A stretch of 61,999 nucleotides of DNA from Nemertoderma westbladi (taxonomy: Eukaryota > Animalia > Xenacoelomorpha). The stretch covers positions 1 through 61,999 of the forward strand of contig JAUCBJ010001495.1 of the NCBI GenBank assembly GCA_032718475.1, written 5' to 3'. The notes beneath the pieces were generated by a model, which did not search any database, was not told the DNA's origin, and was given only the letters and a program-made list of their open reading frames with translations. A program made the translations under genes and the position numbers. Of the stretch, positions 4,149 through 44,453 are shown one piece after another (positions within the stretch are counted from its first letter, which is position 1; every line of letters starts with the position of its first letter).

Positions 4149-4181
4149 CGCGTGTGTTTTTGCTTGGTAAAATGAGTTCGG

Positions 4182-5295: not shown

Positions 5296-5558
5296 TACAA
5301 TATTTCGTGTCATTTTGCTAATGTGTGTTTTAGTTTCTACAACAACAACAACGTACGTGGTCCCGCCATCCTGCGAAGACACCAAGGTTAAAGAGTGCCC
5401 CACCTGGGTGTCTATGGGAGGCTGCTTAGTCAATGGTCACGTCGCTCGCAAAAAGTGCAGAAAATCCTGCAAGACTTGTCTCGGTAAACCTCCAGCAGTA
5501 TACGAAAAAGGGATATGTGATGATCAGGTTACCTCCTGCAAAAGGTGGAAAAATATAG
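5296..5558 (+). CDS. ShKT-domain protein, upstream coding exon (signal-peptide-like segment, ShKT 1, first half of ShKT 2); 5' boundary uncertain
   Basis: Hydrophobic TIFRVILLMCVLVSTTT, then CEDTKVKECPTWVSMGGCLVNGHVARKKCRKSCKTC (6 Cys, Cx3Cx2C end), then CDDQVTSCKRWKNIG. Donor ATAG|GTAGGT after 5558 (phase 1). Candidate acceptor CTGCAG at 5295, or in-frame ATG at 5321. Confidence 0.85.
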
Positions 5559-8500
5559 GTAGGTGTGCAAATACAAAGTAACCCAGTAGGCCTAAGTTAA
5601 TTAGTGAGAAAAACAGTTTATATTTTATAACTAAAAGGGAGAATAAATGAACTATAAATCCAGTAATTTGAATTTAAACGGATCTGCGTTCTTACTGTAC
5701 CTTAGTTAACATTGTGTACACGGTTCGCCTTGACTGACCGTAATACGAAGTAAGCAAGGTTATCAATACGGGTGCTACTGTAATATTTGAACCCTTGTGG
5801 TGTCCCCCTTTGTGGCGAGAGACTCGAGAACAGCTGAGTTCCTCCACGCAAATTATATTTCAGACTTTTTAACAAGTTTTTTATAATTTTCATAAAATAT
5901 TGACTGAGTTATTAGCCTTCAAACATTATCCTCTAACAGACTGACAGACATACAGACCGTCCGACAGACTACGATTGAAACAGCGTTGCCGGTATGCTAA
6001 GCTTGCTCACATCGCCCCCTCAATGCTATGGCCCTTCTATAACTTACTTTTTGGTTAATGTGAAGAAGAGGCCACCATGTACATTATGTATTCCTTCTGT
6101 AACTATTACCTTTAAGTTATTGTGAAGAAGAGGCCACCATGTACTTTATGTATTCCTTCTGTAACTATTACTTAGGTTATTGTGAAGAAGAGGCCACCAT
6201 GTAGTTTATGTATTCCTTCTGTAACTATTACTTTTATGTTATTGTGAAGAAGAGGCCACCATGTACTTTATGTATTCCTTCTGTTACTATTACCTTTAGG
6301 TTATTGTGAAGAAGAGGCCACCATGTACTTTATGTATTCCTTCTGTAACTATTACCTTTATGTTATTGTGAAGAAGAGGCCACCGTGTACTTTATGTATT
6401 CCTTCTGTAACTATTACTTTTAGGTTATTGTGAAGAAGAGGCCACCATGTAATTTATGTATTCCTTCTGTAACTATTACCTTTATGTTATTGTGAAGAAG
6501 AGGCCACCATGTACTTTATGTATTCCTTCTGAAACTATTACCTTTAGGTTATTGTGAAGAAGAGGCCACCATGTACTTTATGTATTCCTTCTGTAACTAT
6601 TACTTTTAGGTTATTGTGAAGAAGAGTCCACCATGTACTTTATGTATTCCTTCTGTAACTATTACCTTTAGGTTATTGTGAAGAAGAGGCCACCATGTAC
6701 TTTATGTATTCCTTCTGTAACTATTACTTTTAGGTTATTGTGAAGAAGAGTCCACCATGTACTTTATGTATTCCTTCTGTAACTATTACCTTTAGGTTAT
6801 TGTGAAGAAGAGGCCACCATGTACTTTATGTATTCCTTCTGTAACTATTACTTTTAGGTTATTGTGAAGAAGAGTCCACCATGTACTTTATGTATTCCTT
6901 CTGTAACTATTACCTTTAGGTTATTGTGAAGAAGAGGCCACCATGTACTTTATGTATTCCTTCTGTAACTATTACCTTTATGTTATTGTGAAGAAGAGGC
7001 CACCATGTACTGTATGTATTCCTTCTGTAACAATTACCTTTCTAGATTATTGTGAAGAAGAGGCCACCATTTACTTTATTTATTCCTTCTGTAACTATTA
7101 CCTTTAGGTTATTGTGAAGAAGAGGCCACCATGTACTTTATGTATTCCTTCTGTAACTATTACCTTTAGGTTATTGTGAAGAAGAGGCCACCATGTACTT
7201 TATTTATTCCTTCTGTAACTATTACTTTTAGGTTATTGTGAAGAAGAGGCCACCATGTACTTTATGTATTCCTTCTGTAACTATTACCTTTAGGTTATTG
7301 TGAAGAAGAGGCCACCATGTAATTTATGTATTCCTTCTGTAACTATTACCTTTATGTTATTGTGAAGAAGAGGCCACCATGTACTTTATGTATTCCTTCT
7401 GAAACTATTACCTTTAGGTTATTGTGAAGAAGAGGCCACCATGTACTTTATGTATTCCTTCTGTAACTATTACTTTTAGGTTATTGTGAAGAAGAGTCCA
7501 CCATGTACTTTATGTATTCCTTCTGTAACTATTACCTTTAGGTTATTGTGAAGAAGAGGCCACCATGTACTTTATGTATTCCTTCTGTAACTATTACTTT
7601 TAGGTTATTGTGAAGAAGAGGCCACCATGTACTTTATGTATTCCTTCTGTAACTATTACCTTTAGGTTATTGTGAAGAAGAGGTCACCATGTACTTTATG
7701 TATTCCTTCTGTAACTATTACCTTTAGGTTATTGTGAAGAAGAGGCCACCATGTACTTTATGTATTCCTTCTGTAACTATTACCTTTAGGTTATTGTGAA
7801 GAAGAGGCCACCATGTACTTTATGTATTCCTTCTGTAACTATTACCTTTAGGTTATTGTGAAGAAGAGGCCACTATGTACTTTATGTATTCCTTCTGTAA
7901 CTATTACTTTTAGGTTATTGTGAAGAAGAGTCCACCATGTACTTTATGTATTCCTTCTGTAACTATTACCTTTAGGTTATTGTGAAGAAGAGGCCACCAT
8001 GTACTTTATGTATTCCTTCTGTAACTATTACTTTTAGGTTATTGTGAAGAAGAGGTCACCATGTACTTTATGTATTCCTTCTGTAACTATTACCTTTAGG
8101 TTATTGTGAAGAAGAGGCCACCATGTACTTTATGTATTCCTTTTGTAACTATTACCTTGAGGTTATTGTGAAGAAGAGGCCACCATGTCCTTTATGTATT
8201 CCTTCTGTAACTATTACCTTTAGGTTATTGTGAAGAAGAGGCCACCATGTACTTTATGTATTCCTTTTGTAACTATTACCTTGAGGTTATTGTGAAGAAG
8301 AGGCCACCATGTCCTTTATGTATTCCTTCTGTAACTATTACCTTTAGGTTATTGTGAAGAAGAGGCCACCATGTACTTTATGTATTCCTTCTGTAACTAT
8401 TACTTTTATGTTATTGTGAAGAAGAGGCCACCATGTACTTTATGTATTCCTTCTGTAACTAGTACCTTTAGGTTATTGTGAAGAAGAGGCCACCATGTCC

Positions 8501-11500
8501 TTTATGTATTCCTTCTGTAACTATTACCTTTAGGTTATTGTGAAGAAGAGGCCACCATGTCCTTTATGTATTCCTTCTGTAACTATTACCTTTAGGTTAT
8601 TGTGAAGAAGAGGCCACCATGTACTTTATGTATTCCTTCTGTAACTATTACCTTTAGGTTATTGTGAAGAAGAGGCCACCATGTACTTTATGTATTCCTT
8701 CTGTAACTATTACCTTTAGGTTATTGTGAAGAAGAGGCCACCATGTACTTTATGTATTCCTTCTGTAACTAGTACCTTTAGGTTATTGTGAAGAAGAGGC
8801 CACCATGTCCTTTATGTATTCCTTCTGTAACTATTACCTTTAGGTTATTGTGAAGAAGAGGCCACCATGTCCTTTATGTATTCCTTCTGTAACTATTACC
8901 TTTAGGTTATTGTGAAGAAGAGGCCACCATGTACTTTATGTATTCCTTCTGTAACTATTACCTTTATGTTATTGTGAAGAAGAGGCCACCATGTACTTTA
9001 TGTATTCCTTCTGTAACTATTACCTTTAGGTTATTGTGAAGAAGAGGCCACCATGTACTTTATGTATTCCTTCTGTAACTAGTACCTTTAGGTTATTGTG
9101 AAGAAGAGGCCACCATGTCCTTTATGTATTCCTTCTGTAACTATTACCTTTAGGTTATTGTGAAGAAGAGGCCACCATGTACTTTATGTATTCCTTCTGT
9201 AACTATTACCTTTATGTTATTGTGAAGAAGAGGCCACCATGTCCTTTATGTATTCCTTCTGTAACTATTACCTTTAGGTTATTGTGAAGAAGAGTCCACC
9301 ATGTACTTTATGTATTCCTTCTGTAACTAGTACCTTTAGGTTATTGTGAAGAAGAGGCCACCATGTCCTTTATGTATTCCTTCTGTAACTATTACCTTTA
9401 GGTTATTGTGAAGAAGAGGCCACCATGTACTTTATGTATTCCTTCTGTAACTATTACTTTTAGGTTATTGTGAAGAAGAGTCCACCATGTACTTTATGTA
9501 TTCCTTCTGTAACTATTACCTTTAAGTTATTGTGAAGAAGAGGCCACCATGTACTTTATGTATTCCTTCTGTAACTATTACTTTTAGGTTATTGTGAAGA
9601 AGAGGCCACCATGTACTTTATGTATTCCTTCTGTAACTAGTACCTTTAGGTTATTGTGAAGAAGAGGCCACCATGTACTTTATGTATTCCTTCTGTAACT
9701 ATTACCTTTAGGTTATTGTGAAGAAGAGTCCACCATGTACTTTATGTATTCCTTCTGTAACTAGTACCTTTAGGTTATTGTGAAGAAGAGGCCACCATGT
9801 CCTTTATGTATTCCTTCTGTAACTATTACCTTTAGGTTATTGTGAAGAAGAGGCCACCATGTCCTTTATGTATTCCTTCTGTAACTATTACCTTTAGGTT
9901 ATTGTGAAGAAGAGGCCACCATGTCCTTTATGTATTCCTTCTGTAACTATTACCTTTAGGTTATTGTGAAGAAGAGGCCACCATGTACTTTATGTATTCC
10001 TTCTGTAACTAGTACCTTTAGGTTATTGTGAAGAAGAGGCCACCATGTCCTTTATGTATTCCTTCTGTAACTATTACCTTTAGGTTATTGTGAAGAAGAG
10101 GCCACCATGTCCTTTATGTATTCCTTCTGTAACTATTACCTTTAAGTTATTGTGAAGAAGAGGCCACCATGTACTTTATGTATTCCTTCTGTAACTAGTA
10201 CCTTTAGGTTATTGTGAAGAAGAGGCCACCATGTCCTTTATGTATTCCTTCTGTAACTATTACCTTTAGGTTATTGTGAAGAAGAGGCCACCATGTACTT
10301 TATGTATTCCTTCTGTAACTATTACTTTTAGGTTATTGTGAAGAAGAGTCCACCATGTACTTTATGTATTCCTTCTGTAACTATTACCTTTAAGTTATTG
10401 TGAAGAAGAGGCCACCATGTACTTTATGTATTCCTTCTGTAACTATTACTTTTAGGTTATTGTGAAGAAGAGGCCACCATGTACTTTATGTATTCCTTCT
10501 GTAACTAGTACCTTTAGGTTATTGTGAAGAAGAGGCCACCATGTCCTTTATGTATTCCTTCTGTAACTATTACCTTTAGGTTATTGTGAAGAAGAGGCCA
10601 CCATGTACTTTATGTATTCCTTCAGTAACTATTACCTTTATGTTATTGTGAAGAAGAGGCCACCATGTACTTTATGTATTCCTTCTGTAACTAGTACCTT
10701 TAGGTTATTGTGAAGAAGAGGCCACCATGTCCTTTATGTATTCCTTCTGTAACTATTACCTTTAGGTTATTGTGAAGAAGAGGCCACCATGTACTTTATG
10801 TATTCCTTCTGTAACTATTACTTTTAGGTTATTGTGAAGAAGAGTCCACCATGTACTTTATGTATTCCTTCTGTAACTATTACCTTTAAGTTATTGTGAA
10901 GAAGAGGCCACCATGTACTTTATGTATTCCTTCTGTAACTATTACCTTTAGGTTATTGTGAAGAAGAGGCCACCATGTACTTTATGTATTCCTTCTGTAA
11001 CTATTACTTTTAGGTTATTGTGAAGAAGAGGCCACCATGTACTTTATGTATTCCTACTAACTATTACCTTTAGGTAATTGTGAAGAAGAGGCCAACATGT
11101 ACTTTATGTATTCCTTCTGTAACTATTACCTTTATGTTATTGTGAAGAAGAGGCCACCATGTACTTTATGTATTCCTTCTGTAACTATTACCTTTATGTT
11201 ATTGTGAAGAAGAGGCCACCATGTACTTTATGTATTCCTTCTGTAACTGGTACCTTTAGGTTATTGTGAAGAAGAGGCCACCATGTCCTTTATGTATTCC
11301 TTCTGTAACTATTACCTTTAGGTTATTGTGAAGAAGAGGCCACCATGTCCTTTATGTATTCCTTCTGTAACTATTACCTTTAGGTTATTGTGAAGAAGAG
11401 GCCACCATGTACTTTATGTATTCCTTCTGTAACTATTACCTTTATGTTATTGTGAAGAAGAGGCCACCATGTACTTTATGTATTCCTTCTGTAACTATTA

Positions 11501-14500
11501 GCTTTAGGTTATTGTGAAGAAGAGGCCACCATGTACTTTATGTATTCCTTCTGTAACTAGTACCTTTAGGTTATTGTGAAGAAGAGGCCACCATGTCCTT
11601 TATGTATTCCTTCTGTAACTATTACCTTTAGGTTATTGTGAAGAAGAGGCCACCATGTACTTTATGTATTCCTTCTGTAACTATTACCTTTATGTTATTG
11701 TGAAGAAGAGGCCACCATGTCCTTTATGTATTCCTTCTGTAACTATTACCTTTAGGTTATTGTGAAGAAGAGTCCACCATGTACTTTATGTATTCCTTCT
11801 GTAACTAGTACCTTTAGGTTATTGTGAAGAAGAGGCCACCATGTCCTTTATGTATTCCTTCTGTAACTATTACCTTTAGGTTATTGTGAAGAAGAGGCCA
11901 CCATGTCCTTTATGTATTCCTTCTGTAACTATTACCTTTAGGTTATTGTGAAGAAGAGGTCACCATGTACTTTATGTATTCCTTCTGTAACTATTACCTT
12001 TAGGTTATTGTGAAGAAGAGGCCACCATGTACTTTATGTATTCCTTCTGTAACTATTACCTTTAGGTTATTGTGAAGAAGAGGCCACCATGTACTTTATG
12101 TATTCCTTCTGTAACTATTACCTTTAGGTTATTGTGAAGAAGAGGCCACCATGTACTTTATGTATTCCTTCTGTAACTATTACTTTTAGGTTATTGTGAA
12201 GAAGAGTCCACCATGTACTTTATGTATTCCTTCTGTAACTATTACCTTTAGGTTATTGTGAAGAAGAGGCCACCATGTACTTTATGTATTCCTTCTGTAA
12301 CTATTACTTTTAGGTTATTGTGAAGAAGAGGTCACCATGTACTTTATGTATTCCTTCTGTAACTATTACCTTTAGGTTATTGTGAAGAAGAGGCCACCAT
12401 GTACTTTATGTATTCCTTTTGTAACTATTACCTTGAGGTTATTGTGAAGAAGAGGCCACCATGTCCTTTATGTATTCCTTCTGTAACTATTACCTTTAGG
12501 TTATTGTGAAGAAGAGGCCACCATGTACTTTATGTATTCCTTTTGTAACTATTACCTTGAGGTTATTGTGAAGAAGAGGCCACCATGTCCTTTATGTATT
12601 CCTTCTGTAACTATTACCTTTAGGTTATTGTGAAGAAGAGGCCACCATGTACTTTATGTATTCCTTCTGTAACTATTACTTTTATGTTATTGTGAAGAAG
12701 AGGCCACCATGTACTTTATGTATTCCTTCTGTAACTAGTACCTTTAGGTTATTGTGAAGAAGAGGCCACCATGTCCTTTATGTATTCCTTCTGTAACTAT
12801 TACCTTTAGGTTATTGTGAAGAAGAGGCCACCATGTCCTTTATGTATTCCTTCTGTAACTATTACCTTTAGGTTATTGTGAAGAAGAGGCCACCATGTAC
12901 TTTATGTATTCCTTCTGTAACTATTACCTTTAGGTTATTGTGAAGAAGAGGCCACCATGTACTTTATGTATTCCTTCTGTAACTATTACCTTTAGGTTAT
13001 TGTGAAGAAGAGGCCACCATGTACTTTATGTATTCCTTCTGTAACTAGTACCTTTAGGTTATTGTGAAGAAGAGGCCACCATGTCCTTTATGTATTCCTT
13101 CTGTAACTATTACCTTTAGGTTATTGTGAAGAAGAGGCCACCATGTCCTTTATGTATTCCTTCTGTAACTATTACCTTTAGGTTATTGTGAAGAAGAGGC
13201 CACCATGTACTTTATGTATTCCTTCTGTAACTATTACCTTTATGTTATTGTGAAGAAGAGGCCACCATGTACTTTATGTATTCCTTCTGTAACTATTACC
13301 TTTAGGTTATTGTGAAGAAGAGGCCACCATGTACTTTATGTATTCCTTCTGTAACTAGTACCTTTAGGTTATTGTGAAGAAGAGGCCACCATGTCCTTTA
13401 TGTATTCCTTCTGTAACTATTACCTTTAGGTTATTGTGAAGAAGAGGCCACCATGTACTTTATGTATTCCTTCTGTAACTATTACCTTTATGTTATTGTG
13501 AAGAAGAGGCCACCATGTCCTTTATGTATTCCTTCTGTAACTATTACCTTTAGGTTATTGTGAAGAAGAGTCCACCATGTACTTTATGTATTCCTTCTGT
13601 AACTAGTACCTTTAGGTTATTGTGAAGAAGAGGCCACCATGTCCTTTATGTATTCCTTCTGTAACTATTACCTTTAGGTTATTGTGAAGAAGAGGCCACC
13701 ATGTCCTTTATGTATTCCTTCTGTAACTATTACTTTTAGTTTATTGTGAAGAAGAGGCCACCATGTACTTTATGTATTCCTTCTGTAACTATTACCTTTA
13801 GGTTATTGTGAAGAAGAGGCCACCATGTCCTTTATGTATTCCTTCTGTAACTATTACCTTTAGGTTATTGTGAAGAAGAGGCCACCATGTACTTTATGTA
13901 TTCCTTCTGTAACTATTACCTTTATGTTATTGTGAAGAAGAGGCCACCATGTACTTTATGTATTCCTTCTGTAACTATTACCTTTAGGTTATTGTGAAGA
14001 AGAGGCCACCATGTACTTTATGTATTCCTTCTGTAACTAGTACCTTTAGGTTATTGTGAAGAAGAGGCCACCATGTACTTTATGTATTCCTTCTGTAACT
14101 ATTACCTTTAGGTTATTGTGAAGAAGAGGCCACCATGTACTTTATGTATTCCTTCTGTAACTAGTACCTTTAGGTTATTGTGAAGAAGAGGCCACCATGT
14201 CCTTTATGTATTCCTTCTGTAACTATTACCTTTAGGTTATTGTGAAGAAGAGGCCACCATGTACTTTATGTATTCCTTCTGTAACTATTACCTTTATGTT
14301 ATTGTGAAGAAGAGGCCACCATGTCCTTTATGTATTCCTTCTGTAACTATTACCTTTAGGTTATTGTGAAGAAGAGTCCACCATGTACTTTATGTATTCC
14401 TTCTGTAACTAGTACCTTTAGGTTATTGTGAAGAAGAGGCCACCATGTCCTTTATGTATTCCTTCTGTAACTATTACCTTTAGGTTATTGTGAAGAAGAG

Positions 14501-17500
14501 GTCACCATGTCCTTTATGTATTCCTTCTGTAACTATTACTTTTAGTTTATTGTGAAGAAGAGGCCACCATGTACTTTATGTATTCCTTCTGTAACTATTA
14601 CCTTTAGGTTATTGTGAAGAAGAGGCCACCATGTCCTTTATGTATTCCTTCTGTAACTATTACCTTTAGGTTATTGTGAAGAAGAGGCCACCATGTACTT
14701 TATGTATTCCTTCTGTAACTAGTACCTTTAGGTTATTGTGAAGAAGAGGCCACCATGTCCTTTATGTATTCCTTCTGTAACTATTACCTTTAGGTTATTG
14801 TGAAGAAGAGGCCACCATGTCCTTTATGTATTCCTTCTGTAACTATTACCTTTAAGTTATTGTGAAGAAGAGGCCACCATGTACTTTATGTATTCCTTCT
14901 GTAACTAGTACCTTTAGGTTATTGTGAAGAAGAGGCCACCATGTCCTTTATGTATTCCTTCTGTAACTATTACCTTTAGGTTATTGTGAAGAAGAGGCCA
15001 CCATGTACTTTATGTATTCCTTCTGTAACTATTACTTTTAGGTTATTGTGAAGAAGAGTCCACCATGTACTTTATGTATTCCTTCTGTAACTATTACCTT
15101 TAAGTTATTGTGAAGAAGAGGCCACCATGTACTTTATGTATTCCTTCTGTAACTATTACTTTTAGGTTATTGTGAAGAAGAGGCCACCATGTACTTTATG
15201 TATTCCTTCTGTAACTAGTACCTTTAGGTTATTGTGAAGAAGAGGCCACCATGTCCTTTATGTATTCCTTCTGTAACTATTACCTTTAGGTTATTGTGAA
15301 GAAGAGGCCACCATGTACTTTATGTATTCCTTCAGTAACTATTACCTTTATGTTATTGTGAAGAAGAGGCCACCATGTACTTTATGTATTCCTTCTGTAA
15401 CTAGTACCTTTAGGTTATTGTGAAGAAGAGGCCACCATGTCCTTTATGTATTCCTTCTGTAACTATTACCTTTAGGTTATTGTGAAGAAGAGGCCACCAT
15501 GTACTTTATGTATTCCTTCTGTAACTATTACTTTTAGGTTATTGTGAAGAAGAGTCCACCATGTACTTTATGTATTCCTTCTGTAACTATTACCTTTAAG
15601 TTATTGTGAAGAAGAGGCCACCATGTACTTTATGTATTCCTTCTGTAACTATTACCTTTAGGTTATTGTGAAGAAGAGTCCACCATGTACTTTATGTATT
15701 CCTTCTGTAACTAGTACCTTTAGGTTATTGTGAAGAAGAGGCCACCATGTCCTTTATGTATTCCTTCTGTAACTATTACCTTTAGGTTATTGTGAAGAAG
15801 AGGCCACCATGTCCTTTATGTATTCCTTCTGTAACTATTACCTTTAGGTTATTGTGAAGAAGAGGCCACCATGTCCTTTATGTATTCCTTCTGTAACTAT
15901 TACCTTTAGGTTATTGTGAAGAAGAGGCCACCATGTACTTTATGTATTCCTTCTGTAACTAGTACCTTTAGGTTATTGTGAAGAAGAGGCCACCATGTCC
16001 TTTATGTATTCCTTCTGTAACTATTACCTTTAGGTTATTGTGAAGAAGAGGCCACCATGTCCTTTATGTATTCCTTCTGTAACTATTACCTTTAAGTTAT
16101 TGTGAAGAAGAGGCCACCATGTACTTTATGTATTCCTTCTGTAACTAGTACCTTTAGGTTATTGTGAAGAAGAGGCCACCATGTCCTTTATGTATTCCTT
16201 CTGTAACTATTACCTTTAGGTTATTGTGAAGAAGAGGCCACCATGTACTTTATGTATTCCTTCTGTAACTATTACTTTTAGGTTATTGTGAAGAAGAGTC
16301 CACCATGTACTTTATGTATTCCTTCTGTAACTATTACCTTTAAGTTATTGTGAAGAAGAGGCCACCATGTACTTTATGTATTCCTTCTGTAACTATTACT
16401 TTTAGGTTATTGTGAAGAAGAGGCCACCATGTACTTTATGTATTCCTTCTGTAACTAGTACCTTTAGGTTATTGTGAAGAAGAGGCCACCATGTCCTTTA
16501 TGTATTCCTTCTGTAACTATTACCTTTAGGTTATTGTGAAGAAGAGGCCACCATGTACTTTATGTATTCCTTCAGTAACTATTACCTTTATGTTATTGTG
16601 AAGAAGAGGCCACCATGTACTTTATGTATTCCTTCTGTAACTAGTACCTTTAGGTTATTGTGAGGAAGAGGCCACCATGTCCTTTATGTATTCCTTCTGT
16701 AACTATTACCTTTAGGTTATTGTGAAGAAGAGGCCACCATGTACTTTATGTATTCCTTCTGTAACTATTACTTTTAGGTTATTGTGAAGAAGAGTCCACC
16801 ATGTACTTTATGTATTCCTTCTGTAACTATTACCTTTAAGTTATTGTGAAGAAGAGGCCACCATGTACTTTATGTATTCCTTCTGTAACTATTACCTTTA
16901 GGTTATTGTGAAGAAGAGGCCACCATGTACTTTATGTATTCCTTCTGTAACTATTACTTTTAGGTTATTGTGAAGAAGAGGCCACCATGTACTTTATGTA
17001 TTCCTTCTGTAACTATTACTTTTAGGTTATTGTGAAGAAGAGGCCACCATGTACTTTATGTATTCCTTCTAACTATTACCTTTAGGTAATTGTGAAGAAG
17101 AGGCCAACATGTACTTTATGTATTCCTTCTGTAACTATTACCTTTATGTTATTGTGAAGAAGAGGCCACCATGTACTTTATGTATTCCTTCTGTAACTAT
17201 TACCTTTATGTTATTGTGAAGAAGAGGCCACCATGTACTTTATGTATTCCTTCTGTACCTGGTACCTTTAGGTTATTGTGAAGAAGAGGCCACCATGTCC
17301 TTTATGTATTCCTTCTAACTATTACCTTTAGGTAATTGTGAAGAAGAGGCCAACATGTACTTTATGTATTCCTTCAGTAACTATTACCTTTATGTTATTG
17401 TGAAGAAGAGGCCACCATGTACTTTATGTATTCCTTCTGTAACTATTACCTTTATGTTATTGTGAAGAAGAGGCCACCATGTACTTTATGTATTCCTTCT

Positions 17501-29500: not shown

Positions 29501-32500
29501 TTTATGTATTCCTTCTGTAACTATTACCCTTAGGTTATTGTGATGAAGAGGCCACCATGTACTTTATGTATTCCTTCTGTAACTATTACCTTTATGTTAT
29601 TGTGAAGAAGAGGCCACCATGTACTTTATGTATTCCTTCTGTAACTATTACCTTTAGGTTATTGTGATGAAGAGGCCACCATGTACTTTATGTATTCCTT
29701 CTGTAACTATTACCTTTATGTTATTGTGAAGAAGAGGCCACCATGTACTTTATGTATTCCTTCTGTAACTATTACCTTTAGGTTATTGTGATGAAGAGGC
29801 CACCATGTACTTTATGTATTCCTTCTGTAACTATTACCTTTAGGTTATTGTGATGAAGAGGCCACCATGTACTTTATGTATTCCTTTTGTAACTATTACC
29901 TTTAGGTTATTGTGAAGAAGAGGCCACCATGTACTTTATGTATTCCTTCTGTAACTATTACCTTTATGTTATTGTGAAGAAGAGGCCACCATGTAATTTA
30001 TGTATTCCTTCTGTAACTATTACCTTTAGGTTATTGTGATGAAGAGGCCACCATGTACTTTAGGTATTCCTTCTGTAACTATTACCTTTAGGTTATTGTG
30101 AAGAAGAGGCCACCATGTACATTATGTATTCCTTCTGTAACTATTATCTTTATGTTATTGTGAAGAAGAGGCCACCATGTAATTTATGTATTCCTTCAGT
30201 AACTATTACTTTTAGGTTATTGTGAAGAAGAGGCCACCATGTACTTTATGTATTCCTTCTGTAACTATTACCTTTATGTTATTGTGAAGAAGAGGCCACC
30301 ATGTAATTTATGTATTCCTTCAGTAACTATTACTTTTAGGTTATTGTGAAGAAGAGGCCACCATGTACTTTATGTATTCCTTCTGTAACTATATTACTTT
30401 TAGGTTATTGTGAAGAAGAGGCCACCATGTACTTTATGTATTCCTTCTGTAACTATTACCTTTATGTTATTGTGAAGAAGAGGCCACCATGTACTTTATG
30501 TATTCCTTCTGTAACTATTACCCTTATGTTATTGTGAAGAAGAGGCCACCATGTAATTTATGTATTCCTTCAGTAACTATTACTTTTAGGTTATTGTGAA
30601 GAAGAGGCCACCATGTACTTTATGTATTCCTTCTGTAACTATTACCTTTATGTTATTGTGAAGAAGAGGCCACCATGTAATTTATGTATTCCTTCAGTAA
30701 CTATTACTTTTAGGTTATTGTGAAGAAGAGGCCACCATGTACTTTATGTATTCCTTCTGTAACTATTACCTTTAGGTTATTGTGAAGAAGAGGCCACCAT
30801 GTACTTTATGTATTCCTTCTGTAACTATTACCTTTAGGTTATTGTGAAGAAGAGGCCACCATGTACTTTATGTATTCCTTCTGTAACTATTACCTTTATG
30901 TTATTGTGAAGAAGAGGCCACCATGTAATTTATGTATTCCTTCAGTAACTATTACTTTTAGGTTATTGTGAAGAAGAGGCCACCATGTATTTTATGTATT
31001 CCTTCTGTAACTATTACCTTTATGTTATTGTGAAGAAGAGGCCACCATGTACTTTATGTATTCCTTCTGTAACTATTACCTTTATGTTATTGTGAAGAAG
31101 AGGCCACCATGTAATTTATGTATTCCTTCAGTAACTATTACTTTTAGGTTATTGTGAAGAAGAGGCCACCATGTACTTTATGTATTCCTTCTGTAACTAT
31201 TACCTTTAGGTTATTGTGAAGAAGAGGCCACCATGTACTTTATGTATTCCTTCTGTAACTATTACCTTTATGTTATTGTGAAGAAGAGGCCACCATGTAA
31301 TTTATGTATTCCTTCAGTAACTATTACTTTTAGGTTATTGTGAAGAAGAGGCCACCATGTACTTTATGTATTCCTTCTGTAACTATTACCTTTAGGTTAT
31401 TGTGAAGAAGAGGCCACCATGTACTTTATGTATTCCTTCTGTAACTATTACCTTTATCTTATTGTGAAGAAGAGGCCACCATGTAATTTATGTATTCCTT
31501 CAGTAACTATTACTTTTAGGTTATTGTGAAGAAGAGGCCACCATGTACTTTATGTATTCCTTCTGTAACTATTACCTTTAGGTTATTGTGAAGAAGAGGC
31601 CACCATGTACTTTATGTATTCCTTCTGTAACTATATTACCTTTAGGTTATTGTGAAGAAGAGGCCACCATGTACTTTATGTATTCCTTCTGTAACTATAT
31701 TACCTTTAGGTTATTGTGATGAAGAGGCCACCATGTACTTTATGGATTCCTTCTAACTATTACTTTTAGGTTATTGTGAAGAAGAGGCCACCATGTACTT
31801 TATGGATTCCTTCTAACTATTACTTTTAGGTTATTGTGAAGAAGAGGCCACCATGTACTTTATGTATTCCTTCTGTAACAATATTACCTTTAGGTTATTG
31901 TGAAGAAGAGGCCACCATGTACTTTATGTATTCCTTCTATAACTATTACCTTTAGGTTATTGTGAAGAAGAGGCCACCATGTACTTTATGTATTCCTTCT
32001 GTAACTATTACCTTTAGGTTATTGTGATGAAGAGGCCACCATGTACTTTATGTATTCCTTCGAACTATTACTTTTAGGTTATTGTGAAGAAGAGGCCACC
32101 ATGTACTTTATGTATTCCTTCTGTAACTATATTACCTTTAGGTTATTGTGAAGAAGAGGCCACCATGTACTTTATGTATTCCTTCTGTAACTATTACCTT
32201 TAGGTTATTGTGAAGAAGAGGCCACCATGTACTTTATGTATTCCTTCTGTAACTATTACCTTTATGTTATTGTGAAGAAGAGGCCACCATGTACTTTATG
32301 TATTCCTTCTGTAACTATTACTTTTAGGTTATTGTGAAGAAGAGGCCACCATGTACTTTATGTATTCCTTCTGTAACTATTGCTTTTAGGTTATTGTGAA
32401 GAAGAGGCCACCATGTACTTTATGTATTCCTTCTGTAACTATTACTTTTAGGTTATTGTTGTGAAGAAGAGGCCACCATGTACTTTATGTATTCCTTCTG

Positions 32501-35500
32501 TAACTATTACCTTTATGTTATTGTGAAGAAGAGGCCACCATGTACTTTATGTATTCCTTCTGTAACTATTACCTTTATGTTATTGTGAAGAAGAGGCCAC
32601 CATGTACTTTATGTATTCCTTCTGTAACTATTACCTTTAGGTTATTGTGATGAAGAGGCCACCATGTACTTTATGTATTCCTTCTGTAACTATTATCTTT
32701 AGGTTATTGTGAAGAAGAGGCCACCATGTACTTTATGTATTCCTTCTGTAACTATTACCTTTATGTTATTGTGAAGAAGAGGCCACCATGTAATTTATGT
32801 ATTCCTTCTGTAACTATTACCTTTAGGTTATTGTGATGAAGAGGCCACCATGTACTTTATGTATTCCTTCAGTAAATATTACCTTTATGTTATTGTGAAG
32901 AAGAGGCCACCATGTACTTTATGTATTCCTTCTGTAACTATTACCTTTATGTTACTGTAAAGAAGACGCCACCATGTACTTTATGTATTCCTTCTGTAAC
33001 TATTACCTTTATGTTATTGTGAAGAAGAGGCCACCATGTACTTTATGTATTCCTTCTGTAACTATTACCTTTAGGTTATTGTGATGAAGAGGCCACCATG
33101 TACTTTATGTATTCCTTCTAACTATTACTTTTAGGTTATTGTGAAGAAGAGGCCACCATGTACTTTATGTATTCCTTCTGTAACTATTACCTTTATGTTA
33201 TTGTGAAGAAGAGGCCACCATGTAATTTATGTATTCCTTCTGTAACTATTACCTTTAGGTTATTGTGAAGAAGAGGCCACCATGTACTTTATGTATTCCT
33301 TCTGTAACTATTACCTTTAGGTTATTGTGAAGAAGAGGCCACCATGTACTTTATATTTTCCTTCAGTAACTATTACCTTTATGTTATTGTGAAGAAGAGG
33401 CCACCATGTACTTTATGTATTCCTTCTGTAACTATTACCTTTAGGTTATTGTGAAGAAGAGGCCACCATGTACTTTATGTATTCCTTCTGTAAATATTAC
33501 CTTTAGGTTATTGTGAAGAAGAGGCCACCATCTACTTTATGTATTCCTTCTGTAAATATTACCTTTAGGTTATTGTGAAGAAGAGGCCACCATGTACTTT
33601 ATGTATTCCTTCTGTAAATATTACCTTTAGGTTATTGTGAAGAAGAGGCCACCATGTACTTTATGTATTCCTTCTGTAACTATTACCTTTAGGTTATTGT
33701 GATGAAGAGGCCACCATGTACTTTATGTATTCCTTCTGTAACTATTACCTTTAGGTTATTGTGATGAAGAGGCCACCATGTACTTTATGTATTCCTTCTA
33801 ACTATTACTTTTAGGTTATTGTGAAGAAGAGGCCACCATGTACTTTATGTATTCCTTCTGTAACTATATTACCTTTAGGTTATTGTGAAGAAGAGGCCAC
33901 CATGTACTTTATGTATTCCTTCTGTAACTATATTACCTTTAGGTTATTGTGATGAAGAGGCCACCATGTACTTTATGTATTCCTTCAGTAACTATTACTT
34001 TTAGGTTATTGTGAAGAAGAGGCCACCATGTACTTTATGTATTCCTTCTGTAACTATTACATTTAGGTTATTGTGAAGAAGAGGCCACCATGTACTTTAT
34101 GTATTCCTTCTGTAACTATTACCTTTAGGTTATTGTGATGAAGAGGCCACCATGTACTTTATGTATTCCTTCTGTAACTATTATCTTTAGGTTATTGTGA
34201 AGAAGAGGCCACCATGTACTTTATGTATTCCTTCTGTAACTATTACCTTTATGTTATTGTGAAGAAGAGGCCACCATGTAATTTATGTATTCCTTCTGTA
34301 ACTATTACCTTTAGGTTATTGTGATGAAGAGGCCACCATGTACTTTATGTATTCCTTCAGTAAATATTACCTTTATGTTATTGTGAAGAAGACGCCACCA
34401 TGTACTTTATGTATTCCTTCTGTAACTATTACCTTTATGTTATTGTGAAGAAGAGGCCACCATGTACTTTATGTATTCCTTCTGTAACTATTACCTTTAG
34501 GTTATTGTGATGAAGAGGCCACCATGTACTTTATGTATTCCTTCTAACTATTACTTTAAGGTTATTGTGAAGAAGAGGCCACCATGTACTTTATGTATTC
34601 CTTCTGTAACTATTACCTTTATGTTATTGTGAAGAAGAGGCCACCATGTAATTTATGTATTCCTTCAGTAACTATTACTTTTAGGTTATTGTGAAGAAGA
34701 GGCCACCATGTACTTTATGTATTCCTTCTGTAACTATTACCTTTAGGTTATTGTGAAGAAGAGGCCACCATGTACTTTATGTATTCCTTCTGTAACTATA
34801 TTACCTTTAGGTTATTGTGAAGAAGAGGCCACCATGTACTTTATGTATTCCTTCTGTAACTATTACCTTTATGTTATTGTGATGAAGAGGCCACCATGTA
34901 CTTTATGTATTCCTTCTGTAATTATTACCTTTAGGTTATTGTGAAGAAGAGGCCACCATGTACTTTATGTATTCCTTCTGTAACTATATTACCTTTATGT
35001 TATTGTGAAGAAGAGGCCACCATGTACTTTATGTATTCCTTCTGTAACTATTACCTTTATGTTATTGTGATGAAGAGGCCACCATGTACTTTATGTATTC
35101 CTTCTGTAATTATTACCTTTAGGTTATTGTGAAGAAGAGGCCACCATGTACTTTATGTATTCCTTCTGTAACTATTACCTTTAGGTTATTGTGAAGAAGA
35201 GGCCACCATGTACTTTATATTTTCCTTCAGTAACTATTACCTTTATGTTATTGTGAAGAAGAGGCCACCATGTACTTTATGGATTCCTTCTAACTATTAC
35301 TTTTAGGTTATTGTGAAGAAGAGGCCACCATGTACTTTATGTATTCCTTCTAACTATTACTTTTAGGTTATTGTGAAGAAGAGGCCACCATGTACTTTAT
35401 GTATTCCTTCTGTAACTATATTACCTTTAGGTTATTGTGAAGAAGAGGCCACCATGTACTTTATGTATTCCTTCTATAACTATTACCTTTAGGTTATTGT

Positions 35501-38500
35501 GAAGAAGAGGCCACCATGTACTTTATGTATTCCTTCTGTAACTATTACCTTTAGGTTATTGTGATGAAGAGGCCACCATGTACTTTATGTATTCCTTCGA
35601 ACTATTACTTTTAGGTTATTGTGAAGAAGAGGCCACCATGTACTTTATGTATTCCTTCTGTAACTATATTACCTTTAGGTTATTGTGAAGAAGAGGCCAC
35701 CATGTACTTTATGTATTCCTTCTGTAACTATTACTTTTAGGTTATTGTGAAGAAGAGGCCACCATGTACTTTATGTATTCCTTCTGTAACTATTACCTTT
35801 AGGTTATTGTGAAGAAGAGGCCACCATGTACTTTATGTATTCCTTCTGTAACTATTACCTTTATGTTATTGTGAAGAAGAGGCCACCATGTACTTTATGT
35901 ATTCCTTCTGTAACTATTACTTTTAGGTTATTGTGAAGAAGAGGCCACCATGTACTTTATGTATTCCTTCTGTAACTATTACTTTTAGGTTATTGTGAAG
36001 AAGAGGCCACCATGTACTTTATGTATTCCTTCTGTAACTATTACTTTTAGGTTATTGTTGTGAAGAAGAGGCCACCATGTACTTTATGTATTCCTTCTGT
36101 AACTATTACCTTTATGTTATTGTGAAGAAGAGGCCACCATGTACTTTATGTATTCCTTCTGTAACTATTACCTTTATGTTATTGTGAAGAAGAGGCCACC
36201 ATGTACTTTATGTATTCCTTCTGTAACTATTACCTTTAGGTTATTGTGATGAAGAGGCCACCATGTACTTTATGTATTCCTTCTGTAACTATTATCTTTA
36301 GGTTATTGTGAAGAAGAGGCCACCATGTACTTTATGTATTCCTTCTGTAACTATTACCTTTATGTTATTGTGAAGAAGAGGCCACCATGTAATTTATGTA
36401 TTCCTTCTGTAACTATTACCTTTAGGTTATTGTGATGAAGAGGCCACCATGTACTTTATGTATTCCTTCAGTAAATATTACCTTTATGTTATTGTGAAGA
36501 AGAGGCCACCATGTACTTTATGGATTCCTTCTAACTATTACTTTTAGGTTATTGTGAAGAAGAGGCCACCATGTACTTTATGTATTCCTTCTAACTATTA
36601 CTTTTAGGTTATTGTGAAGAAGAGGCCACCATGTACTTTATGTATTCCTTCTGTAACTATATTACCTTTAGGTTATTGTGAAGAAGAGGCCACCATGTAC
36701 TTTATGTATTCCTTCTATAACTATTACCTTTAGGTTATTGTGAAGAAGAGGCCACCATGTACTTTATGTATTCCTTCTGTAACTATTACCTTTAGGTTAT
36801 TGTGATGAAGAGGCCACCATGTACTTTATGTATTCCTTCGAACTATTACTTTTAGGTTATTGTGAAGAAGAGGCCACCATGTACTTTATGTATTCCTTCT
36901 GTAACTATATTACCTTTAGGTTATTGTGAAGAAGAGGCCACCATGTACTTTATGTATTCCTTCTGTAACTATTACTTTTAGGTTATTGTGAAGAAGAGGC
37001 CACCATGTACTTTATGTATTCCTTCTGTAACTATTACCTTTAGGTTATTGTGAAGAAGAGGCCACCATGTACTTTATGTATTCCTTCTGTAACTATTACC
37101 TTTATGTTATTGTGAAGAAGAGGCCACCATGTACTTTATGTATTCCTTCTGTAACTATTACTTTTAGATTATTGTGAAGAAGAGGCCACCATGTACTTTA
37201 TGTATTCCTTCTGTAACTATTACTTTTAGGTTATTGTGAAGAAGAGGCCACCATGTACTTTATGTATTCCTTCTGTAACTATTACTTTTAGGTTATTGTT
37301 GTGAAGAAGAGGCCACCATGTACTTTATGTATTCCTTCTGTAACTATTACCTTTATGTTATTGTGAAGAAGAGGCCACCATGTACTTTATGTATTCCTTC
37401 TGTAACTATTACCTTTATGTTATTGTGAAGAAGAGGCCACCATGTACTTTATGTATTCCTTCTGTAACTATTACCTTTAGGTTATTGTGATGAAGAGGCC
37501 ACCATGTACTTTATGTATTCCTTCTGTAACTATTATCTTTAGGTTATTGTGAAGAAGAGGCCACCATGTACTTTATGTATTCCTTCTGTAACTATTACCT
37601 TTATGTTATTGTGAAGAAGAGGCCACCATGTAATTTATGTATTCCTTCTGTAACTATTACCTTTAGGTTATTGTGATGAAGAGGCCACCATGTACTTTAT
37701 GTATTCCTTCAGTAAATATTACCTTTATGTTATTGTGAAGAAGACGCCACCATGTACTTTATGTATTCCTTCTGTAACTATTACCTTTATGTTATTGTGA
37801 AGAAGAGGCCACCATGTACTTTATGTATTCCTTCTGTAACTATTACCTTTAGGTTATTGTGATGAAGAGGCCACCATGTACTTTATGTATTCCTTCTAAC
37901 TATTACTTTAAGGTTATTGTGAAGAAGAGGCCACCGTGTACTTTATGTATTCCTTCTGTAACTATTACCTTTATGTTATTGTGAAGAAGAGGCCACCATG
38001 TAATTTATGTATTCCTTCAGTAACTATTACTTTTAGGTTATTGTGAAGAAGAGGCCACCATGTACTTTATGTATTCCTTCTGTAACTATTACCTTTAGGT
38101 TATTGTGAAGAAGAGGCCACCATGTACTTTATGTATTCCTTCTGTAACTATATTACCTTTAGGTTATTGTGAAGAAGAGGCCACCATGTACTTTATGTAT
38201 TCCTTCTGTAACTATTACCTTTATGTTATTGTGATGAAGAGGCCACCATGTACTTTATGTATTCCTTCTGTAATTATTACCTTTAGGTTATTGTGAAGAA
38301 GAGGCCACCATGTACTTTATGTATTCCTTCTGTAACTATTACCTTTAGGTTATTGTGAAGAAGAGGCCACCATGTACTTTATATTTTCCTTCAGTAACTA
38401 TTACCTTTATGTTATTGTGAAGAAGAGGCCACCATGTACTTTATGTATTCCTTCTGTAACTATTACCTTTAGGTTATTGTGAAGAAGAGGCCACCATGTA

Positions 38501-41500
38501 CTTTATGTATTCCTTCTGTAAATATTACCTTTAGGTTATTGTGAAGAAGAGGCCACCATGTACTTTATGTATTCCTTCTGTAAATATTACCTTTAGGTTA
38601 TTGTGAAGAAGAGGCCACCATGTACTTTATGTATTCCTTCTGTAAATATTACCTTTAGGTTATTGTGAAGAAGAGGCCACCATGTACTTTATGTATTCCT
38701 TCTGTAACTATTACCTTTAGGTTATTGTGATGAAGAGGCCACCATGTACTTTATGTATTCCTTCTGTAACTATTACCTTTAGGTTATTGTGATGAAGAGG
38801 CCACCATGTACTTTATGTATTCCTTCTAACTATTACTTTTAGGTTATTGTGAAGAAGAGGCCACCATGTACTTTATGTATTCCTTCTGTAACTATATTAC
38901 CTTTAGGTTATTGTGAAGAAGAGGCCACCATGTACTTTATGTATTCCTTCTGTAACTATATTACCTTTAGGTTATTGTGATGAAGAGGCCACCATGTACT
39001 TTATGTATTCCTTCAGTAACTATTACTTTTAGGTTATTGTGAAGAAGAGGCCACCATGTGCTTTATGTATTCCTTCTGTAACTAGTACCTTTAGGTTATT
39101 GTGAAGAAGAGGCCACCATGTGCTTTATGTATTCCTTCTGTAACTATATTACCTTTAGGTTATTGTGATGAAGAGGCCACCATGTACTTTATGTATTCCT
39201 TCAGTAACTATTACTTTTAGGTTATTGTGAAGAAGAGGCCACCATGTACTTTATGTATTCCTTCTGTAACTATATTACCTTTAGGTTATTGTGATGAAGA
39301 GGCCACCATGTACTTTATGTATTCCTTCAGTAACTATTACTTTTAGGTTATTGTGAAGAAGAGGCCACCATGTACTTTATGTATTCCTTCTGTAACTATT
39401 ACCTTTAGGTTATTGTGATGAAGAGGCCACCATGTACTTTATGTATTCCTTCTGTAACTATATTACCTTTAGGTTATTGTTAAGAAGAGGCCACCATGTA
39501 CTTTATGTATTCCTTCTGTAACTATTACCTTTATGTTATTGTGAAGAAGAGGCCACCATGTACTTTATGTATTCCTTCTGTAACTATTACCTTTAGGTTA
39601 TTGTGATGAAGAGGCCACCATGTACTTTATGTATTCCTTCTGTAACTATATTACCTTTAGGTTATTGTGAAGAAGAGGCCACCATGTACTTTATGTATTC
39701 CTTCTGTAAGTATTACTTTTAGGTTATTGTGAAGAAGAGGCCACCATGTACTTTATGTATTCCTTCAGTAAATATTACCTTTAGGTTATTGTGAAGAAGA
39801 GGCCACCGTGTACTTTATGTATTCCTTCTGTAACTATTACTTTTAGGTTATTGTGAAGAAGAGGCCACCATGTACTTTATGTATTCCTTCTGTAACTATT
39901 ACTTGTATGTTATTGTGAAGAAGAGGCCACCATGTACTTTATGTATTCCTTCTGTAACTATTACCTTTATGTTATTGTGAAGAAGAGGCCACCATGTACT
40001 TTATGTATTCCTTCTGTAACTATTACCTTTAGGTTATTGTGAAGAAGAGGCCACCATGTACTTTATGTATTCCTTCTGTAACTATTACATTTATGTTATT
40101 GTGAAGAAGAGGCCACCATGTACTTTATGTATTCCTTCTGTAACTATTACCTTTAGGTTATTGTGAAGAAGAGGCCACCATGTACTTTATGTATTCCTTC
40201 TGTAACTATTACTTGTATGTTATTGTGAAGAAGAGGCCACCATGTACTTTATGTATTCCTTCTGTAACTATTACCTTTATGTTATTGTGAAGAAGAGGCC
40301 ACCATGTACTTTATGTATTCCTTCTGTAACTATTACCTTTAGGTTATTGTGAAGAAGAGGCCACCATGTACTTTATGTATTCCTTCTGTAACTATTACAT
40401 TTATGTTATTGTGAAGAAGAGGCCACCATGTACTTTATGTATTCCTTCTGTAACTATTACCTTTAGGTTATTGTGAAGAAGAGGCCACCATGTACTTTAT
40501 GTATTCCTTCTGTAACTATTACCTTTCTGTTATTGTGAAGAAGAGGCCACCATGTACTTTATGTATTCCTTCAGTAAATATTACCTTTAGGTTATTGTGA
40601 AGAAGAGGCCACCATGTACTTTATGTATTCCTTCTGTAACTATTACTTTTAGGTTATTGTGAAGAAGAGGCCACCATGTACTTTATGTATTCCTTCTGTA
40701 ACTATTACCTTTATGTTATTGTGAAGAAGAGACCACCATGTACTTTATGTATTCCTTCTGTAACTATCACCTTTATGTTATTGTGAAGAAGAGGCCACCA
40801 TGTACTTTATGTATTCCTTCTGTTACTATTACCTTTAGGTTATTGTGAAGAAGAGGCCACAATGTACTTTATGTATTCCTTCTGTAACTATTACCTTTAT
40901 GTTATTGTGAAGAAGAGGCCACCATGTACTTTATGTATTCCTTCTGTAACTATTACCTTTATGTTATTGTGAAGAAGAGGCCACCATGTACTTTATGTAT
41001 TCCTTCTGTAACTATTACCTTTAGGTTATTGTGAAGAAGAGGCCACAATGTACTTTATGTATTCCTTCTGTAACTATTACCTTTATGTTATTGTGAAGAA
41101 GAGGCCACAATGTACTTTATGTATTCCTTCTGTAACTATTACCTTTATGTTATTGTGAAGAAGAGGCCACCATGTACTTTATGTATTCCTTCTGTAACTA
41201 TTACCTTTATGTTATTGTGAAGAAGAGGCCACCATGTACTTTATGTATTCCTTCTGTAACTATTACTTTTAGGTTATTGTAAAGAAGAGGCCACCATGTA
41301 CTTTATGTATTCCTTCTGTAACTATTACCTTTAGGTTATTGTGAAGAAGAGGCCACCATGTACTTTATGTATTCCTTCTGTAACTATTACCTTTATGTTA
41401 TTGTGAAGAAGAGGCCACCATGTACTTTATGTATTCCTTCTGTAACTATTACCTTTATGTTATTGTGAAGAAGAGGCCACCATGTACTTTATGTATTCCT

Positions 41501-44126
41501 TCTGTAACTATTACCTTTATGTTATTGTGAAGAAGAGGCCACCATGTACTTTATGTATTCCTTCTGTAACTATTACCTTTATGTTATTGTGAAGAAGAGG
41601 CCACCATGTACTTTATGTATTCCTTCTGTAACTATTACCTTTATGTTATTGTGAAGAAGAGGCCACCATGTACTTTATGTATTCCTTCTGTAACTATTAC
41701 TTTTAGGTTATTGTAAAGAAGAGGCCACCATGTACTTTATGTATTCCTTCTGTAACTATTACCTTTAGGTTATTGTGAAGAAGAGGCCACCATGTAGTTT
41801 ATGTATTCCTTCTGTAACTATTACCTTTATGTTATTGTGAAGAAGAGGCCACCATGTACTTTATGTATTCCTTCTGTAACTATTACCTTTATGTTATTGT
41901 GAAGAAGAGGCCACCATGTACTTTATGTATTCCTTCTGTAACTATTACCTTTATGTTATTGTGAAGAAGAGGCCACCATGTACTTTATGTATTCCTTCTG
42001 TAACTATTACCTTTATGTTATTGTGAAGAAGAGGCCACAATGTACTTTATGTATTCCTTCAGTAAATATTACCTTTAGGTTATTGTGAAGAAGAGGCCAC
42101 AATGTACTTTATGTATTCCTTCAGTAAATATTACCTTTAGGTTATTGTGAAGAAGAGGCCACCATGTACTTTATGTATTCCTTCTGTAACTATTACCTTT
42201 ATGTTATTGTGAAGAAGAGGCCACAATGTACTTTATGTATTGCTTCTGTAACTATTACCTTTAGGTTATTGTGAAGAAGAGGCCACCATGTACTTTATGT
42301 ATTCCTTCAGTAAATATTACCTTTAGGTTATTGTGAAGAAGAGGCCACCATGTACTTTATGTATTCCTTCTGTAACTATTACCTTTATGTTATTGTGAAG
42401 AAGAGGCCACCATGTACTTTATGTATTCCTTCTGTAACTATTACCTTTAGGTTATTGTGAAGAAGAGGCCACCATGTACTTTATGTATTCCTTCAGTAAA
42501 TATTACCTTTAGGTTATTGTGAAGAAGAGGCCACCATGTACTTTATGTATTCCTTCTGTAACTATTACCTTTAGGTTATTGTGAAGAAGAGTCCACCATG
42601 TACTTTATGTATTCCTTCAGTAAATATTACCTTTAGGTTATTGTGAAGAAGAGGCCACCATGTACTTTATGTATTCCTTCTGTAACTATTACCTTTAGGT
42701 TATTGTGAAGAAGAGGCCACAATGTACTTTATGTATTGCTTCTGTAACTATTACCTTTAGGTTATTGTGAAGAAGAGGCCACAATGTACTTTATGTATTC
42801 CTTCAGTAAATATTACCTTTAGGTTATTGTGAAGAAGAGGCCACCATGTACTTTATGTATTCCTTCTGTAACTATTACCTTTATGTTATTGTGAAGAAGA
42901 GGCCACCATGTACTTTATGTATTCCTTCTGTAACTATTACCTTTAGGTTATTGTGAAGAAGAGGCCACCATGTACTTTATGTATTCCTTCAGTAAATATT
43001 ACCTTTAGGTTATTGTGAAGAAGAGGCCACCATGTACTTTATGTATTCCTTCTGTAACTATTACCTTTAGGTTATTGTGAAGAAGAGTCCACCATGTACT
43101 TTATGTATTCCTTCTGTAACTATTACCTTTATGTTATTGTGAAGAAGAGGCCACCATGTACTTTATGTATTCCTTCTGTAACTATTACCTTTAGGTTATT
43201 GTGAAGAAGAGGCCGCCATGTACTTTATGTATTCCTTCTGTAACTATTACTTTTAGGTTATTGTGAAGAAGAGGCCACAATGTACTTTATGTATTCCTTC
43301 TGTAACTATTACCTTTAGGTTATTGTGAAGAAGAGGCCACCATGTACTTTATGTATTCCTTCTGTAACTATTACTTTTAGGTTATTGTGAAGAAGAGGCC
43401 ACCATGTACTTTATGTATTCCTTCTGTAACTATTACCTTTATGTTATTGTGAAGAAGAGGCCACCATGTACTGTATGTATTCCTTCTGTAACTATTACCT
43501 TTCTAGATTATTGTGAAGAAGAGGCCACCATGTACTTTATGTATTCCTTCTGTAACTATTACTTTTAGGTTATTGTGAAGAAGAGGCCTCCATGTACTTT
43601 ATGTATTCCTTCAGTAACTATTACTTTTAGGTTATTGTGAAGAAGAGGCCACCATGTACTTTATGTATTCCTTCTGTAACTATTACCTTTAGGTTATTGT
43701 GAAGAAGAGGCCACCATGTACTTTATGTATTCCTTCTGTAACTATTACCTTTAGGTTATTGTGAAGAAGAGGCCACCATGTACTTTATGTATTCCTTCTG
43801 TAACTATTACTTTTAGGTTATTGTGAAGAAGAGGCCACAATGTACTTTATGTATTCCTTCTGTAACTATTACCTTTAGGTTATTGTGAAGAAGAGGCCAC
43901 CATGTACTTTATGGATTCCTTCAGTAACTATTACCTTTATGTTATTGTGAAGAAGAGGCCACCATGTACTTTATGTATTCCTTCTGTAACTATTACCTTT
44001 AGGTTATTGTGAAGAAGAGGCCACCATTTACTTTATGTATTCCTTCTGTAACTATTACCTTTATGTTATTGTGAAGAAGAGGCCACCATTTACTTTATTT
44101 ATTCCTTCTGTAACTATTACTTTTAG
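5559..44126 (+). other. 38.6-kb GT-AG phase-1 intron of the ShKT gene
   Basis: GTAGGT at 5559 and TTTTAG ending at 44126. Joining gives G|GT TAT TGT and completes a six-Cys ShKT domain: CDDQVTSCKRWKNIGYCEEEATMYFMYSFCTETCNVC. Confidence 0.85.
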
Positions 44127-44172
44127 GTTATTGTGAAGAAGAGGCCACAATGTACTTCATGTATTCCTTCTG
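6033..44172 (+). repeat. 62-bp tandem repeat array (~615 copies by length/62) derived from the splice acceptor and start of the ShKT terminal exon
   Basis: Consensus GTTATTGTGAAGAAGAGGCCACCATGTACTTTATGTATTCCTTCTGTAACTATTACCTTTAG, head-to-tail with no spacers. The last unit runs directly into the unique exon sequence. Confidence 0.98.
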
Positions 44173-44344
44173 CACTGAGACTTGTAATGTTTGTGACTCA
44201 GCCAAAGCCTATATAGAAGCCAACGAGAGTTGCCATAACGACCACATTAAATGCAGTGATTGGTTGGCTATTAATCCGTCTATTTGCAGTAAAAATGCAT
44301 ACAGGAAGGTGTGCAGAGCAATGTGTGGTGCCTGCACTGTGTAG
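44127..44344 (+). CDS. ShKT-domain protein, terminal coding exon (second half of ShKT 2 and ShKT 3)
   Basis: (G)YCEEEATMYFMYSFCTETCNVC-DSAKAYIEANES-CHNDHIKCSDWLAINPSICSKNAYRKVCRAMCGAC-TV*; phase matches the donor at 5558. Confidence 0.88.
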
Positions 44345-44447
44345 TTGCAACAGAAACTTCAGACGTCATTGGAATAATTTATATTAAAATGTAGTGAAGA
44401 TTTTAAAGCTTTAAATACTATTGGCTAGTTAGGGTGTATTGGTATGT

Positions 44448-44453
44448 AATAAA
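44448..44453 (+). terminator. Candidate polyadenylation signal of the ShKT gene
   Basis: First AATAAA after the stop codon, about 100 nt downstream. Confidence 0.5.

Follow-up and report, generated by a model that had tools for sequence, protein, structure and literature searches.

A 62-bp satellite repeating the last intron/exon boundary of a ShKT gene in Nemertoderma westbladi

The ShKT gene and its array

The window, i.e. the whole stretch of 61,999 nucleotides analysed here, contains on its forward strand a gene for a protein with three ShKT domains, whose last intron of 38,568 nt carries a 62-bp satellite (Table 1). Eight runs match the locus, five of them including the last exon, and none is recorded as RNA. 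Four of these, X1 to X4, were compared at both array ends as assembled contigs. X1 is recorded as "DNA?" but was judged from its own behaviour: it behaves as RNA because it has a poly(A) tail, uncovered intron stretches and an exon joint that is absent from X2–X4. Its cover is absent at 5134–5307, 5598–5771 and 44542–44637.

The X1 transcript contig enters the upstream exon at the acceptor 5332–5333, so that 5296–5333 belongs to an intron and the exon start given by the first-pass annotation, 5296, was wrong. The acceptor 5294–5295 assumed there, with the signal-peptide-like translation behind it, was rejected for the same reason. At least one further exon lies outside 4380–5333, as the X1 contig has about 100 more nucleotides that do not match there. 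Because of these nucleotides, the young LTR retrotransposon at the start of the window probably occupies part of an intron further upstream in the ShKT gene. The overlapping parts of its LTRs differ at 1 of 197 nt and a primer-site-like motif is found near 4177–4195. A rarer second version of the region 5145–5643 with substitutions and small indels occurs in X2 and X4 and represents another allele or gene copy.

ShKT domain 1 passes Pfam ShK (PF01549, cut-off 20.9 bits; E 1.4e-6, 29.1 bits), and domain 3 in the terminal exon falls just below the cut-off with 19.8 bits. Domain 2 is divided by the last intron. The proposal that splicing from 5558 to 44127 completes a six-cysteine ShKT domain was borne out with a profile of 379 ShK-like domains from 103 relatives: with X at the junction, all 35 profile positions were filled at 25.1 bits, whereas the two halves scored 10.6 and 13.4 bits, a translation running into the intron 12.7 and one passing through an internal unit 16.3. 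The cysteine spacing of domain 2 is 6-8-12-3-2. Among the 103 matches no close relative was found, the nearest having 30–49% identity. Full-length relatives were also sought for the last exon in a weak search, which gave two candidates, none of them scored. The stop codon is located at 44342–44344, and in X1 the poly(A) tail follows after 44536.

Tandem Repeats Finder reports 615.1 copies of the 62-bp unit with 95% matches, and segmentation of the array placed 615 exon starts between 6054 and 44127, the units falling into 137 distinct sequences. The unit anatomy and the copy number of the first-pass annotation are confirmed: each unit consists of 16 nt of intron end and the first 46 nt of the terminal exon, and the unique exon sequence continues from the last unit only. 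At the acceptor position, AG is present in 397 of the 615 units, AT in 197, AA in 15 and another dinucleotide in 6. Thus about a third of the acceptors (218/615) are dead, and no site within the unit varies more than the acceptor G (not G in 217/615). The exon part of the last unit is unique among all 615. The two letters that had been proposed as its tag are correct: A at +23 is shared by 11 of the 615 units, and C at +32 is found in the last unit alone. Units 1, 2 and 614 have no AG, and the boundary units are set apart from the cluster, the first being degenerate and the last unique.

Several further features of the repeats were recorded. Where the duplicates join, a donor-like GTAACT arises in 531 of the 615 units and in a single case, the unit at 39661, GTAAGT; a T>A variant gives rise to a pyrimidine-rich, acceptor-like CAG site in 50 places of the array. 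A coding role of the tandem array was rejected because the longest stop-free stretch comprises 90 codons and the frame shifts with every unit. The exon-start motif had no matches in metagenome contigs.

The remainder of the window holds an intronless open reading frame for a CAP/SCP protein, for which one match at 44% identity was found and whose clusters are mostly chordate. It is followed by a second LTR retrotransposon with gag- and pol-like frames in pieces and a PHD-finger-like C-terminus on the integrase frame (domain names assigned by eye), a duplicated open frame with CxxC pairs within dispersed repeats, and a minisatellite unrelated to the array.

Table 1. Features of the window with their coordinates
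Feature	Position	Strand	Support or remarks
Young LTR retrotransposon	1–4408	−	Reverse-transcriptase and integrase-like sequence, judged by eye
Coding internal exon of 225 nt (phase 1-1) with ShKT domain 1 and first part of domain 2	5334–5558	+	X1 contig; Pfam ShK
5' splice site GTAGGT of the last intron	5559–5564	+	Sequence; joint at 5557 in X1, 0 in X2–X4
Non-satellite 5' part of the last intron	5559–6032	+	Covered by DNA contigs of X2–X4; X1 depth 0 at 5598–5771
62-bp satellite, 615 units	6033–44172	+	Tandem Repeats Finder and segmentation
First two units	6037–6160	+	Both without AG at the acceptor position
Penultimate unit	44048–44109	+	AT in place of the acceptor AG (dead); two G>T changes
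Authentic 3' splice site AG	44125–44126	+	X1 contig path
Terminal exon: rest of ShKT domain 2, ShKT domain 3, stop, 3' UTR	44127–44536	+	Domain searches, X1 contigs
Intronless CAP/SCP (GAPR-1-like) open reading frame, 148 aa	47095–47541	+
Second LTR retrotransposon	50346–56730	−	LTRs ~97% identical
Duplicated 154-codon open frame	58848–59312 and 60403–60867		1555-bp spacing
52-bp minisatellite, 11.9 copies	61273–61890		Tandem Repeats Finder

Splicing across the array and its length

In X1, a contig of 355 nt (depth 23.6) matches 5333–5557 without a differing letter and continues directly into the exon start, with an exact match to 44124–44154. The 31-mer at this junction fits 8 of the 615 units. 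The contig that follows covers 44125–44247 without a break and includes the C at +32 of the last unit. In this one run and at the level of contigs, the mRNA is thus spliced at the last, genuine acceptor. This path bears out the joining of 5558 to 44127 that had been predicted from the sequence, and it also supports the final unit as the real exon start, the only one followed by unique sequence. The path continues into last-unit-specific sequence and a poly(A) tail and supports both exons as parts of one expressed gene. Among the X1 contigs on 44110–44800, none of six was of the array type, with a match threshold of 90% and common units that are ~95% identical to the last unit. These counts describe a single run from a different sample or individual than the DNA runs, in contigs that drop rare forms.

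A related transcript, about six times deeper, shares 44125–44247 (123 nt, one listed difference) in X1. It has a different upstream exon and a different 3' end, the latter form being present in the DNA runs X2 and X4 as well, and it may derive from a recent paralogue, gene conversion or chimeric alleles. Because the 123-nt contig is common to both transcripts, the upstream exon is phased to the 3' end of the array gene by depth ratios only; these pair the two at 23.6/139.5 (0.17) and 15.1/95.7 (0.16).

X2 and X3, which come from one sample, and X4, from another sample and study, each contain both array ends; one of these runs may be the source of the assembly. The contigs at the array start are about as deep as those of the upstream exon (37.6/30.9, 48.2/51.8 and 55.7/51.1 in X2, X3 and X4), and therefore most copies of the exon continue into the array. 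Array contigs reach depths of thousands to more than 15,000, compared with 18–56 for the flanks. With 615 units, each 31-mer of the commonest unit cycle should be counted 269 times on average. In X4 the depth of a circular unit contig divided by that of the array-start contig was 278; the best single array contig of X3 gave 93, with array sequence spread over further contigs. Since contig depth is no copy number and cannot separate array length from assembly effects, these values support hundreds of units rather than an exact figure. Depth-based counting of gene copies was dropped, as X2 and X3 disagreed despite coming from the same sample.

That the assembly inflated a short repeat to 38 kb could be argued from the exact duplications inside the array, the longest of which spans 24 units. 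However, the 137 distinct variants lie in regional blocks, and both the presence of the array ends in three DNA runs and the contrast in depth between array and flanks argue for a long array. Over-expansion is unlikely because the ratio in X4 roughly fits the expectation for 615 units, and we give it next to no credence. The read-depth check that had been suggested for the array came out in favour of its reality, and both array ends occur in two DNA samples.

Origin of the array and choice of the acceptor

We consider it most likely, with a probability of about 0.7, that the 615-unit satellite originated from the last intron/exon boundary of the ShKT gene, that all copies but the last are likely treated as intron, and that the array is most likely neutral, tolerated DNA. 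The motif CCTTCT is found at both array ends, one copy lying in the tail of the intron and the other in the exon, and this is a signature of microhomology-mediated duplication. A 62-bp tandem duplication between these two microhomologies would have given the gene a second acceptor. AG would subsequently have been lost from the copy behind the original intron; the first two units carry none, including the copy that follows the original upstream intron sequence. Slippage and unequal exchange may then have amplified the unit in nested blocks, in an expansion that was likely neutral. Such nested duplications comprise 24 identical units 4276 bp apart and others of 17, 17 and 16 units. Nearby units differ on average at 2.3 nt and distant ones at 2.6–2.7 nt, the variants being arranged in regional blocks. 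Rare variants common only to the array ends connect units 3 and 577 as well as 16 and 604. Because they occur only there, they suggest that the ends stem from one short ancestral block and that the middle expanded later.

The first-pass annotation had stated that the gene must select one acceptor from hundreds of near-identical ones. The number holds, as 396 AG acceptors lie upstream of the real one, but 218 of the 615 units are dead. The last 3' splice site of a transcript is coupled to 3'-end processing. Terminal-exon definition would favour the last acceptor, to which the upstream exon ending at 5558 is joined in the X1 contigs, because it alone precedes a complete terminal exon and a poly(A) site. 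Internal acceptors are followed only by the weak donor-like GTAACT and more satellite. The last acceptor may additionally benefit from the dead acceptor next to it and from a U-richer stretch upstream. In a post hoc comparison its 45 upstream nucleotides were the most U-rich among the 397 AG units (21 T versus 16–20), a context that results from the AT and the two G>T changes of the penultimate unit. Still, upstream context alone is insufficient because the unit at 7108, 37 kb closer to the donor, has a nearly equal context and the next unit upstream is also dead for 130 of the 397 AG units. As the comparison is post hoc and the copies are not independent, there are only hints of selection against AG or of a strengthening of the last acceptor. 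Nonsense-mediated decay could serve as a back-up: behind each of the 396 internal AG acceptors an in-frame stop is encountered within 2–61 codons, and transcripts entering there would likely be degraded and thereby hidden.

Since the terminal exon starts with GT, splicing to an internal unit would rebuild an AG/GT donor each time, and internal acceptors could be used in a self-correcting recursive ladder in which the product is re-spliced up to the last unit. The resulting mRNA would not differ from that of X1. AG/GT is present in 392 of 615 units, recursive splicing at such sites has been described (PMC10809524, in its available text), and by a crude count against the consensus, the regenerated donor has 7 of 11 U1-pairing matches compared with 8 of 11 in the real donor. 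However, GTTATT lacks a purine at +3 and G at +5, and AG/GT is inherited from the first codon of the exon, so that selection is not needed to explain it. The acceptor G as the most variable site of the unit (217/615 not G) also argues against an upkeep of these sites. No intermediates were seen in the contigs, which could hardly show them. We regard stepwise removal as unlikely, but if true, a 38-kb intron with about 390 decoy acceptors would be removed stepwise to yield one exact mRNA, and this would account for the satellite-size growth of acceptor mirages whose exon begins with GT.

The array could also be costly, with most transcripts mis-spliced or terminated early and destroyed, the gene being a weakened family member and AG-less variants spreading under selection. 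The contig depth in X1 of about one sixth of the related transcript would agree with this, although contig depth is a poor measure of expression, as would the loss of AG in 218 of 615 units including 1, 2 and 614. On the other hand, differences in depth between paralogues need no such cause, and an LTR element is also found upstream in the first visible intron of the gene. The AT units are accounted for by a single G>T change that gene conversion has spread, given that 14 of 122 unit backgrounds carry both states at the acceptor. Furthermore, the array start follows the upstream exon at equal depth in both DNA samples. A cost of this kind therefore appears quite improbable to us. Less probable again is the use of internal units as in-frame cassette micro-exons of 45 nt, which in some tissues would add cysteine modules of 15 residues to ShKT domain 2. 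In 359 of 615 units an AG does precede an open stretch of 45 nt in phase 1-1 that is followed by a GT, one unit has GTAAGT (39661), and stops are rarer in AG units (6/397) than in dead units (20/218). Among distinct variants this bias is small (6/90 versus 7/47) and the copies are not independent. Moreover, the donor-like site has no exonic match (TCT/GT) and mostly no G at +5, inclusion would break the six-cysteine spacing, and none of the six X1 contigs was of the array type.

On the preferred reading of a neutral array that is spliced out as intron, an expressed gene tolerates 396 near-identical upstream AG acceptors over 38 kb and still yields a correctly spliced transcript. Because variants tag single units and one unit alone precedes the real terminal exon, the array offers a natural experiment in which terminal-exon definition can be weighed against decay, recursive splicing and a first-come choice of acceptors. 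It also calls for caution in annotation, as mirage arrays translate into false exon fragments.

Relation to known splice-junction repeats

Repeats of this kind have been described in amphioxus as "mirages", tandem copies of an intron's 3' end together with the following exon's 5' part (PMC3087553). According to the available text, those of BflGb6 comprise 3 and 6 units, many but not all of which keep their splice signals, and the globin mirages show regular splicing, concerted evolution and divergent boundary units (PMC3087553). Mirages of PGBD5 have 2–7 units, and Adh and troponin C are cited as further cases (PMC3902484). Splicing is left undisturbed in both accounts as far as they are available (PMC3087553, PMC3902484). 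The N. westbladi array shares with the amphioxus mirages (BflGb6/BflGb9, Adh3, troponin C, PGBD5), as described there, a unit that spans the intron/exon boundary, the retention of the splice signal in many but not all units (here AG in 397/615), splicing at the authentic boundary (here in contigs of one run) as well as concerted evolution with boundary units set apart. Unlike them, it is located at a terminal exon and has 615 units in 38 kb as compared with 3 and 6 (BflGb6) or 2–7 (PGBD5).

Human genes provide partial analogues. In CBS, 844ins68 is a 68-bp duplication of an intron/exon junction whose distal site is strongly favoured, giving normal mRNA (PMC2630376). The duplicated junction and the use of the distal site are like those of the array, but in the available description there are two copies and the exon is internal. 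The 37-bp VNTR in IVS7 of F7 is a minisatellite that spans a splice junction and carries silent pseudo-sites of the same sequence as the real site (PMC1557585); judging by the accessible part of this report, the donor is repeated and the first copy is used, unlike in the array. UBC and VCX3A contain dual-specific AGGT tandem arrays with AG/GT in most units (PMC10809524). There, as far as the text is available, the unit length is divisible by three and units enter the mRNA in variable numbers, whereas the array has a 62-nt unit, frames closed by stops and no array-type contig in X1. Gigantic Y-linked genes of Drosophila are expressed although their introns are inflated by satellite DNA (PMC12965833). 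They differ from the array in their megabase scale, and the available account does not describe their satellites as copies of the genes' own splice junctions.

The first-pass annotation knew of no described satellite of this size made from an apparently working splice junction, which implied novelty of kind as well. The kind is known from the amphioxus mirages and the human analogues, while the statement on size was not contradicted: no splice-junction satellite of larger or comparable size was found in the literature searched, which covered few subscription journals. We class the array as a mirage because it shares the tested defining features described above. As to length instability between haplotypes or cells, the depth ratios of X3 (93) and X4 (278) differ, but contig depth does not separate length from assembly effects. 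At a scale about 100 times that of the published mirages of 2–7 units, as far as these are described in the available texts, it is a mirage-type minisatellite that is exceptional only in its size.
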